This document shows, piece after piece, positions 956-3,393 of a stretch of 32,000 nucleotides of DNA (the stretch's first letter is position 1; each line of letters starts with the position of its first letter). Source of the DNA: Candidatus Heimdallarchaeota archaeon (GTDB lineage Archaea > Asgardarchaeota > Heimdallarchaeia > Heimdallarchaeales > Heimdallarchaeaceae); the NCBI GenBank assembly GCA_030668875.1, contig DAOVER010000019.1:26651-58650 (forward strand). The letters run 5' to 3'. The notes under the pieces are model-generated. The model saw nothing but the letters and a program-made list of their open reading frames with translations, ran no database searches and was not told where the DNA came from. The position numbers and the translations under genes were made by a program.

Positions 956-2404
956 ATGAGTATCCCCGTTATACTAGAAATTTGTGATCCTAACTCATGT
1001 GGACTAGAATGTGTTAATATTTGTCCTCAGAATAAGAAGGGTAAATTGGCAATTGAGATCAAAGAAGATAAAGCACACATTATAAAAAAGCATTGCATTA
1101 ATTGTTTGCAATGTGTTTATGTTTGTCCATTAGATGCTATAGAAACTACAATAGGTGTCAGTAAAAAAGTAACTTCTTCAAAACTAAAAACAGAAAAAAC
1201 AAAGAAAACTGGACGAGAAGAAAAAAACATTTTCACTATCGATGAAACGGTATTTGAAAGGTACAGTGAAAAGAAAACTATTTTCAATAGAAGAATCTGG
1301 GATGAGAGTTATGAAGGTTATAAGAAACCGATATATGGGAAAGCATCAGAAAGAGCAAAATTGGGGATAGATGGATACTCTGAAATCGAACAAGCTGCTA
1401 TGGATGCTGCATGGTCGATTGAAAATCTTGTTTCTATGAAGGAATTTCATGAAGAGCGTTCAAAAACACTAACTAAAGAGGAAAAAAAGAAGGTTGAGGT
1501 TGCTAAAGTTAAAACAGATGTTAAGCAAGTAAATTATGATGTTCAACAACCTCAGCAATACAAAGTAGAAGACCCCAAAGAAATGACCACTTGGTTGAAA
1601 AAAGTAGCAAAATTGTATGGTGCAAATCTTATAGGAATAGCAAAGCTTGATCCAAAATGGATATACTCCGAAGATAGAATGGAAAGAGAATATGTTCTTC
1701 CCAAAAATCTACAGTATGCGATAGTTATTGCAATTGAAATGAATCAAGGAGCAATAAACACTTCCCCAAAGATGCCTTCTGGCATTGCAACTGGTTTAGG
1801 ATATTCGAAGATGGCATTTGTTAGAACTCTAGTTTCAAAATTTGTTAAAAATCTAGGATATGAAGCTATACCTGCTGGAAACACTTTAGGACTCTCTGTT
1901 CCACTTGCAGTTGAAGCAGGATTAGGTGGTTATGGTAGACAAGGTTTGCTAATTACACGAGATTATGGGCCTAGGGTTAGAATTGGCAAAATATTGACTG
2001 ACATGCCTTTAGTTGCAGATAAACCTGATTACAAATTTGCTAAATCAGTCGTTAAATTCTGCCGTACATGCAAAACATGTGCAGAAAGATGTCCTTCAGC
2101 TTCAATACCTTTTGATGATGATGAGAGTTACAAAACTTATAGTACCAGTAATAATCCTGGAATTAAGAAGTGGTATATAAATGTGGAAACTTGTTTTCTC
2201 TTCTGGTTAGAGAATGGTGGAGATTGTTCAAATTGTATAGCTGATTGTGAATACAATCATGTTCCAACTTGGCCTCATAAATTTGCAAATTGGATTGTTA
2301 TGAACTTTCCTTTTCTTAATCCTATTTGGCCATCTATAGGAAAAATGTTAGGTTATGGTGGTAACAAGTCTGCTAAGAAATTCTGGAAGAAAATTAAGGT
2401 GTAA
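956..2404 (+). CDS. rdhA: Reductive dehalogenase-like (RdhA/QueG family) cobalamin and Fe-S protein with an extra N-terminal RLI/ABCE1-type 2x[4Fe-4S] domain
   Basis: Core motifs KKVAKLYGANLIGIAKLDPKWIYS, LGYEA, VPLAVEAGLGGYGRQGLLITRDYGPRVRI, then CRTCKTCAERCP and CFLFWLENGGDCSNCIADC (the RdhA twin Fe-S motif). N-terminal C10-x4-C15-x3-C19-x3-C23-P and C47-x2-C50-x2-C53-x3-C57-P. No RRxFLK Tat signal. Confidence 0.85.
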   Translation: MSIPVILEICDPNSCGLECVNICPQNKKGKLAIEIKEDKAHIIKKHCINCLQCVYVCPLDAIETTIGVSKKVTSSKLKTEKTKKTGREEKNIFTIDETVFERYSEKKTIFNRRIWDESYEGYKKPIYGKASERAKLGIDGYSEIEQAAMDAAWSIENLVSMKEFHEERSKTLTKEEKKKVEVAKVKTDVKQVNYDVQQPQQYKVEDPKEMTTWLKKVAKLYGANLIGIAKLDPKWIYSEDRMEREYVLPKNLQYAIVIAIEMNQGAINTSPKMPSGIATGLGYSKMAFVRTLVSKFVKNLGYEAIPAGNTLGLSVPLAVEAGLGGYGRQGLLITRDYGPRVRIGKILTDMPLVADKPDYKFAKSVVKFCRTCKTCAERCPSASIPFDDDESYKTYSTSNNPGIKKWYINVETCFLFWLENGGDCSNCIADCEYNHVPTWPHKFANWIVMNFPFLNPIWPSIGKMLGYGGNKSAKKFWKKIKV

Positions 2405-2413
2405 CATTCCACT

Positions 2414-3271
2414 TCATTGCTTAAAGAAATCTGCAAGTTTATGTTGTCCCTTGAAAGTTGTTTTTTCTGGAGTCATCACACTCAAACCTTTTTCTTCCAG
2501 CATCTCTCTGAAGTTGCTAGCAATAGGTGGGGCGTAACCAGAAAAATGTTGATTGATATAGACATAAGCTGACTTCTTGTTAGAGTTATTTGCTAACCCC
2601 TTAACTAATTGCCCTACCATCTCTTCTACTAAATCACTTCTGTCTAAAACTTGTCTCCCTAATCCTGTCTGAGTGCCGTGTGATCCAATAATTCTTAGAT
2701 AGAAATAATCCTTTTTAATTTCCTCATATAATTTGAGTTTGAGATATGGTAAATAAGCACTTACTATCCCCAGTTTATTGTCATTAAGGAAATCATAAGT
2801 TTCTTCATTGAACCATGTCTTATGTCTGAATTCTAATAAGAGTGTATAATCATTGTGTGGAAAAAAACTTACAAATGTTTCTAATTCGTCCATTGTTTTT
2901 GCAGTTTTGTCAAAACTAGGGTAGAATTGCATGACTAGGGGACCGAGCTTATCCTTCAATGGATTCATGATATGTAAAAAGGATTTTAAACTTTCATGGG
3001 TTGTAGCAAGGTTTTCAGCTTGCGCGATTATTTTTGGTATTTTTGCTGTAAGAACAAAGTCATCTGGTAATAATCTTGCCCATCGTTTTGTGTTCTCTAA
3101 TCTTGGAAAAGCATAGAATGTCGAATTTATCTCACAAGTAGTAAATTGTGTTGAATAATATGCGAGTAACTCATAATTTTTAACATCTGATGGATAAAAC
3201 CCACCTAAATTTGCCTTCCAATCACCATAATTAAATCCAGTACAACCAACATGAACTTGTTGATTTGTCAT
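2414..3271 (-). CDS. DUF72 (YecE/YunF family) TIM-barrel protein with C-terminal PIP box
   Basis: VHVGCTGFNYGDW, YYSTQFTTCEINSTFYAFP, FVLTAKIP, LGPLVMQFYPSF, LEFRHKTW and YVYINQ match the DUF72 pattern. ATG at 3271 is preferred over TTG at 3280. The protein ends in QHKLADFFKQ. Confidence 0.9.
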   Translation of the reverse strand: MTNQQVHVGCTGFNYGDWKANLGGFYPSDVKNYELLAYYSTQFTTCEINSTFYAFPRLENTKRWARLLPDDFVLTAKIPKIIAQAENLATTHESLKSFLHIMNPLKDKLGPLVMQFYPSFDKTAKTMDELETFVSFFPHNDYTLLLEFRHKTWFNEETYDFLNDNKLGIVSAYLPYLKLKLYEEIKKDYFYLRIIGSHGTQTGLGRQVLDRSDLVEEMVGQLVKGLANNSNKKSAYVYINQHFSGYAPPIASNFREMLEEKGLSVMTPEKTTFKGQHKLADFFKQ

Positions 3272-3393
3272 TATAATCAACTCTTGAAATAGTTTTCAAT
3301 TAAAAAACCCGTTATATTTGCTAAAAATCTTTCTTATCTAATTGCGGAGAGAACTACTATAATCTATTTAATATCTCTTGAGAACTGTATTTT

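Follow-up and report, generated by a model that had tools for sequence, protein, structure and literature searches.

A conserved C-terminal PIP box points to a Heimdallarchaeal DUF72 protein as a candidate PCNA partner

The DUF72 gene and its neighbours

The window, by which we mean the whole analysed stretch of 32,000 nucleotides from a Candidatus Heimdallarchaeota archaeon, carries on its reverse strand a gene of the DUF72/YecE family. The open reading frame extends over 2414-3280 (minus strand), and an upstream TTG at 3280 would yield a protein of 288 amino acids; we placed the start at the ATG at 3271, which agrees with the orthologues and gives 285 amino acids. The Pfam model DUF72 (PF01904) is matched over its whole length (E=4.8e-47, 161.3 bits against a cut-off of 25.3), and a search of the ESM Atlas returned DUF72 clusters only. 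The following features are referred to in the text, with residue numbers counted from the ATG.

956..2404, plus strand: reductive-dehalogenase-like Fe-S protein, convergent, with 9 bp between its end and the DUF72 stop, and separate from the feature under study
2414..3271, minus strand: DUF72/YecE-family gene, 285 amino acids, single copy in the genome
2423..2446, minus strand: canonical PIP box, residues 276-283, with the anchors Q276, L279, F282 and F283
2447..2491, minus strand: linker, residues 261-275, variable except for the invariant P268, [FY]273, K274 and G275 just before the PIP box
2492..3259, minus strand: TIM barrel of eight strands, residues 5-260, AlphaFold pLDDT 93.6
2687..2701, minus strand: Y191-x-R193-x-I195 in strand 7 (Tm1631 R191); position 195, usually His in the family, holds Ile in 35/35 orthologues
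2825..2833, minus strand: E147-x-R149 (Tm1631 R145), where strand 5 ends, near-invariant family-wide
3041..3043, minus strand: K77 (Tm1631 K72), where strand 3 ends, unchanged in all 35 orthologues
3113..3133, minus strand: E47-N49 and the aromatic pair F52-Y53, equivalents of Tm1631 E42, N44, Y47 and Y48

Positions 2411-2447 are covered without a variant by contigs of four sequencing runs on marine sediment, all from one study and one of them possibly the source, so that an assembly error in the tail is unlikely. A single contig of run X4 (depth 21) has a C>T change at window position 3133 that turns the family-invariant E47 into Lys; it may come from a strain whose allele is damaged or be an error of the contig.

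The convergent gene encodes a protein that exceeds the TIGR02486 cut-off (199.8 against 160.35 bits) and has an extra N-terminal Fe-S domain; it is syntenic with DUF72 in relatives, as are the other local neighbours, genes for an MBL protein and an aminotransferase and formiminotransferase genes. Here and in the orthologues the neighbours belong to histidine utilisation or encode aminotransferase, Fe-S protein and IMPDH. The 25 families listed for 99 neighbours of PIP-type DUF72 genes are housekeeping save one SRAP, a protein that was not found in this 92%-complete genome. Genes for a LigD-type ligase (L025, L055, L134, L152), a RadA-like protein (L032, L121) or MutS/MutL (L200) lie sporadically near some DUF72 genes. 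The local gene context lends no support to a function in repair; the main contextual support is the published enrichment of DUF72 near polB2 with SRAP (PMC11791011).

The C-terminal PIP box, its conservation and its docking on PCNA

The original prediction had located an exact PIP box at the end of the DUF72 protein, and both its sequence and its coordinates are right. Residues 276-283 read QHKLADFF (Q276 at 2446-2444, F283 at 2425-2423), are followed by KQ and the stop codon, and satisfy the consensus Q-x-x-[LIM]-x-x-[FY]-[FY] as defined in a review of archaeal PCNA partners that covers NucS, NreA and TIP (PMC4929162). The motif lies outside the folded domain: the barrel ends at residue 260, the PIP box ends two residues before the stop, and the tail is modelled at a pLDDT of 73 and then 64. 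The preceding linker had also been described as low-complexity, which does not hold, the entropy of residues 261-275 being 3.14 against a protein median of 3.19. Its first part, with the invariant P268, is modelled at pLDDT 94, and confidence drops from residue 271 onwards.

The chance of such an ending was estimated from how often Qxx[LIM]xx[FYW][FYW] occurs at internal positions of the 2827 ORFs that were crudely called in the genome. A PIP ending at most two residues from the C-terminus is expected with 1.4e-4 per protein, and nine such proteins are seen against 0.40 expected (Poisson p=5e-10). A strict PIP near the C-terminus is found in eleven proteins including DUF72, and six of the ten others are DNA enzymes. 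Hel308, Dpo4/DinB, Nre, PolB and Fen1 carry it, as do a ligase-associated exonuclease-like MBL protein, whose family match lies below cut-off, and a DUF2797 protein; three unannotated proteins with the motif are probable chance matches. Relaxing the last position adds a family 4 UDG, an RFC-like ATPase and a UDG-linked radical SAM protein to the list. Since the PIP-tailed set consists mostly of DNA proteins, a PIP tail is a good marker of the PCNA interactome in this genome.

A lack of conservation in close orthologues had been named as the observation that would speak against a functional motif. Among 35 close orthologues (DUF72 proteins of 43-100% identity) the PIP box is kept in all 35, strictly in 33 and with an F-L ending in two, so that no refutation came from this side. 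The anchors are essentially fixed: K274, G275 and Q276 are each present in 35/35, position 279 holds Leu in 34 and Ile in one, position 282 Phe in 33 and Tyr in two, and position 283 Phe in 33 and Leu in two. The spacers 277, 280 and 281 vary freely. This tail sits behind a linker in which the most frequent residue reaches a mean of 54% in these orthologues, against 73% in the barrel. At the level of DNA the anchors Leu, Gln and Phe are written with several synonymous codons, and the PIP box is retained where the gene downstream of DUF72 is a different one.

The genome encodes a single PCNA (G000:C12:44617-45402) with both Pfam domains, the conserved A250-P251-R252 and an intact PIP pocket. 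When DUF72 residues 254-285 were modelled with this cognate PCNA, the complex scored 0.79 in three runs, compared with 0.02 for the best of three controls, a pass that may express likeness to the many solved PIP-PCNA complexes and possibly memory of them. In calibration the docking mark was reached by 58/80 solved pairs and by 2/110 mismatched pairs. The runs share at least 80% of their contacts, with a partner pLDDT of 60-63, and join PCNA residues 41, 44-48, 127-132, 231-232 and 248-255 with DUF72 residues 270-283. The check that had been suggested with the prediction thus came out in its favour: the tail is placed in the canonical PIP pocket, formed by the interdomain connector loop (IDCL) and the C-terminus, and L279 lies deepest in the modelled complex. 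Judging from motif, conservation and in-silico docking, we consider it very likely that the DUF72 tail docks on PCNA.

Distribution of the tail in archaea and bacteria

DUF72 is present in 264/300 Asgard genomes. Tails were surveyed in a non-random sample, in which a PIP of seven or eight residues after the barrel was counted; a homologue scan from a single DUF72 protein gave mostly Loki-type copies. In this sample the motif follows the barrel in 35/53 Asgard copies and in 25/25 Loki-type copies, in 5/79 copies of the Thermoproteota sample after removal of two false matches, and in 5/30 copies of a further archaeal phylum. Loki-type, Thor-type and thaumarchaeal copies keep it behind very different linkers. 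Several DUF72 subfamilies are tail-less, and most Thermoproteota copies are without a clamp motif. In a quick tree of 113 rows, from which rows above 62% identity or with fewer than 170 core residues were left out, all true PIP rows fall into one weakly supported clade of 53 rows (SH-aLRT 90). This clade also contains PIP-less fusions to a C-terminal CxH domain, and members of the other archaeal clade sampled are tail-less or have a different C-terminal domain. PIP matches in L169 and L191 and clamp matches in L261 and L262 were discarded on inspection.

Two variants of the architecture were seen on the way. In one Asgard family of the same class, a DUF72 paralogue has a C-terminal zinc ribbon with four cysteines behind its PIP (L015, L026-L034, L036, L037). 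In the other variant, DUF72 continues into a fused C-terminal domain whose C-K-H motif looks SWIM-like, lacks the PIP and often lies beside a second, divergent DUF72 gene (L035, L039, L054, L056, L116-L145); such fusions occur in both the Asgard and the Thermoproteota samples.

A comparison of archaeal with bacterial C-termini, also proposed with the original prediction, gave a divided picture, with a PIP in an archaeal branch and with several tail-less subfamilies and PIP-less sampled bacteria beside it. No PIP was detected in 119 short-type bacterial DUF72 copies or in 29 copies of a bacterial genome sample, and the 119 short copies contained no clamp motif of any type; 60 matches of the beta-clamp regular expression among short bacterial copies were false and lay in the last barrel helix. 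Other bacterial members do end in a clamp-like motif. E. coli YecE ends with QSSLF and the S. aureus protein with QLKLF, the staphylococcal QLKLF-type ending is kept across 119 clusters, and QxxLF-like endings occur in 5/29 sampled bacterial copies (Pseudomonadota and Bacillota). Endings of this type fit the published beta-clamp consensus (PMC11139829). The tail motif follows the clamp of the host, PIP in archaea and QxxLF in these bacteria, and this is the best argument that the tail serves the clamp. In the early 2000s Dalrymple and colleagues reportedly named 'Duf72' as one of the putative binders of the beta clamp, and the bacterial DUF72 clamp motif has probably been noticed before. A switch between archaeal PIP and bacterial beta-clamp motif has been published for PolB2/iRadA (PMC11791011). 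Three further copies, P0047, P0056 (L199) and P0057, are close to the PIP-type archaeal ones and have tails that look beta-clamp-like or like shortened PIPs.

The barrel pocket, the proposed role and its alternatives

Among solved structures the best matches are two DUF72 proteins, 1vpq (T. maritima Tm1631; Z 24.5, rmsd 2.6, 239 residues aligned) and 1vpy (E. faecalis EF0366, also 1ztv; Z 24.2, rmsd 2.8, 232 aligned). The next fold match is the endonuclease IV 5zhz (Z 13.9, rmsd 3.3, 210 aligned), tied with sugar epimerases at 13.6 and 13.2. The Heimdallarchaeal protein shares the TIM barrel of the solved DUF72 members and differs from them by the PIP tail added beyond the barrel and by the replacement of two family histidines. 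On its open face the barrel has a polar and basic pocket conserved in the family, beside the F52/Y53 pair. In 35/35 orthologues E47, N49, K77, Q115, E147, R149, Y191, R193 and N240 are invariant and lie at strand ends, and the position of K77 is Lys or Arg in 252/253 family rows. A docking study of Tm1631 placed N44, K72, Q114, R145 and R191 around the scissile phosphate in silico and proposed E42, N44, Y47 and Y48 as a wedge that probes lesions (PMC3828134). The equivalents of the five scissile-phosphate residues (N49, K77, Q115, R149 and R193) are all invariant in the orthologues, and K77 is a candidate nucleophile or phosphate ligand. The histidines at positions 84 and 195, present in 83% and 67% of the family, are replaced by Gln and Ile in the Heimdallarchaeal orthologues, which also lack a strand-6 Asp frequent in other family rows; His198 and His242 are newly conserved in them.

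The original prediction had placed DUF72 near endonuclease IV and UV-damage endonuclease, and the relation stands at the level of the fold, with a TIM barrel of the same broad group and a Glu ending strand 5, and fails at the metal ligands. By strand register on the model, read without superposition, strands 3-8 of DUF72 end with K77, Q115, E147, S171, R193/I195 and N240, in contrast to His, His, Glu, Asp..His, His, Asp.His and Glu at the strand ends of the genome's own endonuclease IV. The nine His/Asp/Glu ligands of the trinuclear zinc centre are by this register absent from the DUF72 strand ends, save possibly the strand-5 Glu, and DUF72 crystals were without metals (PMC3828134). At the sequence level hhalign gave a probability of 0.13% between DUF72 and the genome's endonuclease IV (one sequence only), and Pfam AP_endonuc_2 was not matched by the DUF72 protein. 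Membership of DUF72 in the endonuclease IV family was rejected: the zinc ligands are missing, and a true endonuclease IV is encoded separately in the genome. No UvdE was among the best 50 fold matches, which remains compatible with the kinship to UV-damage endonuclease that has been stated (PMC11791011). DUF72 may work like a lesion nuclease while standing outside the endonuclease IV family.

We propose that DUF72 is a non-core PCNA partner whose tail, F273-F283, would insert Q276, L279, F282 and F283 under the interdomain connector loop of PCNA. The PIP box would keep the barrel on clamp-loaded DNA, alternating there with Fen1, PolB, Dpo4, UDG and NreA. The pocket may then bind a DNA phosphate at a damaged site or a strand break, and process it without a three-zinc centre, and altogether a role in DNA repair or end processing appears reasonably probable. 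The chemistry that we favour would act on an abasic site or a blocked end; K77 might serve as the nucleophile that forms a Schiff base, and R149/R193 would hold the phosphate. In this detail the proposal is speculative and may well be wrong. The original prediction went further and put the protein into replication-coupled repair. The conserved PIP and the model in the canonical pocket agree with a place on the clamp; replication coupling is not implied by a PIP alone, because NreA, UDG and other repair factors carry PIPs too. Moreover, many subfamilies are without a clamp motif, so the activity of DUF72 need not depend on the clamp.

Several other explanations of the tail and the barrel were weighed. 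The PIP could bring to the replisome an enzyme that does not act on DNA but on nucleotides or small molecules, for instance one resembling sugar-phosphate epimerases or lyases or one that sanitises nucleotides. The metabolic neighbours, the many sugar epimerases and isomerases among the nearest non-DUF72 folds (Z 12-13.6, tied with endonuclease IV) and the resemblance of the Tm1631 pocket to nucleotide-binding sites (PMC3828134) would suit such an enzyme; we nevertheless find it rather unlikely, given that, save DUF2797, all annotated proteins of this genome whose C-terminus has a strict PIP act on DNA, and given the polB2/SRAP association (PMC11791011) and the sporadic LigD, RadA-like and MutS/MutL neighbours. 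It is unlikely, too, that the Heimdallarchaeal clade docks on the clamp in a catalytically altered or inactive form, as a lesion sensor or adaptor or with a tail that, like TIP or p21, competes with other PIP partners, and cuts no DNA. The nine invariant pocket residues fit an active site better than a scaffold, and the new His198 and His242 may compensate for what has changed, namely H84Q, H195I and the missing strand-6 Asp, which together with the E47K contig and the presence of a true endonuclease IV are the points in favour of inactivity.

The tail itself could be conserved for another cause, binding a different partner or folding back on the barrel or a dimer, so that the likeness to a PIP would be a resemblance only. 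PIP-like motifs can be promiscuous, residues 279-283 form a helix in the model, and the [FY]-K-G preceding the Gln is conserved to an unusual degree. Against this stand the switch of bacterial tails to the beta-clamp type, the persistence of the PIP across very different archaeal linkers, the low pLDDT of the tail on its own (64-73) and the modelled docking at the canonical PCNA site, and we regard the explanation as improbable. A chance match or a constraint on the DNA, such as a T-rich archaeal terminator or an overlap with the convergent gene, has in its favour the T-rich Phe codons and the gene end 9 bp away, but is refuted for practical purposes: an ending of this kind is rare per protein, and the synonymous codons at the anchors together with the retention of the PIP beside different downstream genes exclude a terminator or an overlap.

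The preferred reading, a DUF72 protein held on PCNA by its tail and probably acting on DNA, has precedents among non-core archaeal partners. NucS/EndoMS and NreA (PMC4929162) likewise carry a canonical PIP at the very end of the chain, beyond the folded domain, and iRadA/PolB2 (PMC11791011) are PIP-type in archaea and beta-clamp-type in bacteria. DUF72 differs from all of these by its unrelated TIM-barrel fold and by a PIP in one archaeal branch, and is known here from sequence and model. E. coli YecE and the staphylococcal DUF72 proteins belong to the same family and have a C-terminal beta-clamp motif of QxxLF type; they differ in the clamp and the type of motif, are distant in sequence and stand beside many tail-less bacterial copies. 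PIP-tagged repair proteins are well known, and DUF72 is not a new kind of system. In the literature searched we found no statement tying DUF72/YecE to PCNA or a clamp and no experiment on binding or activity for any DUF72 protein. We regard DUF72 as a newly recognised candidate for a non-core PCNA partner, with a PIP box that is very probably functional.

Crystal structures of DUF72 proteins have existed since 2004, and the idea of a repair function has so far come from one docking study and from gene context. The conserved clamp tag speaks, independently of these, for work on clamp-loaded DNA by the PIP branch of DUF72 at least. We speculate, with due reserve, that DUF72/YecE might be an unrecognised, metal-independent class of clamp-loaded enzymes that process DNA lesions or ends, a TIM-barrel abasic-site lyase or end-cleaner with an invariant Lys, which would be near-core in Asgard archaea, with the PIP branch as a regular component of the PCNA interactome and a docking motif matched to the clamp of each domain. 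A mutant with FF changed to AA would be a clean handle for the biochemistry of DUF72 and for genetics in tractable hosts, e.g. with E. coli yecE. With this candidate the non-core PCNA interactome of archaea gains a widespread member, and gains it in the lineage nearest to eukaryotes.

Other C-termini of this genome deserve mention in their own right. The DUF2797 protein with a strict C-terminal PIP (G000:C12:27764-28687; L001:1765-2685) is an uncharacterised candidate PCNA partner. PIP-like C-termini were also seen on the ligase-associated exonuclease-like MBL protein (C88:16735-17751; L007), on a HEAT-repeat protein (C22:56527-57246; L271), on a TdeIII-like restriction endonuclease (C37:12823-13674; L272) and on the UDG-linked radical SAM-HhH protein (G000:C86:18090-19253; L274), which matches TIGR03916 above cut-off.
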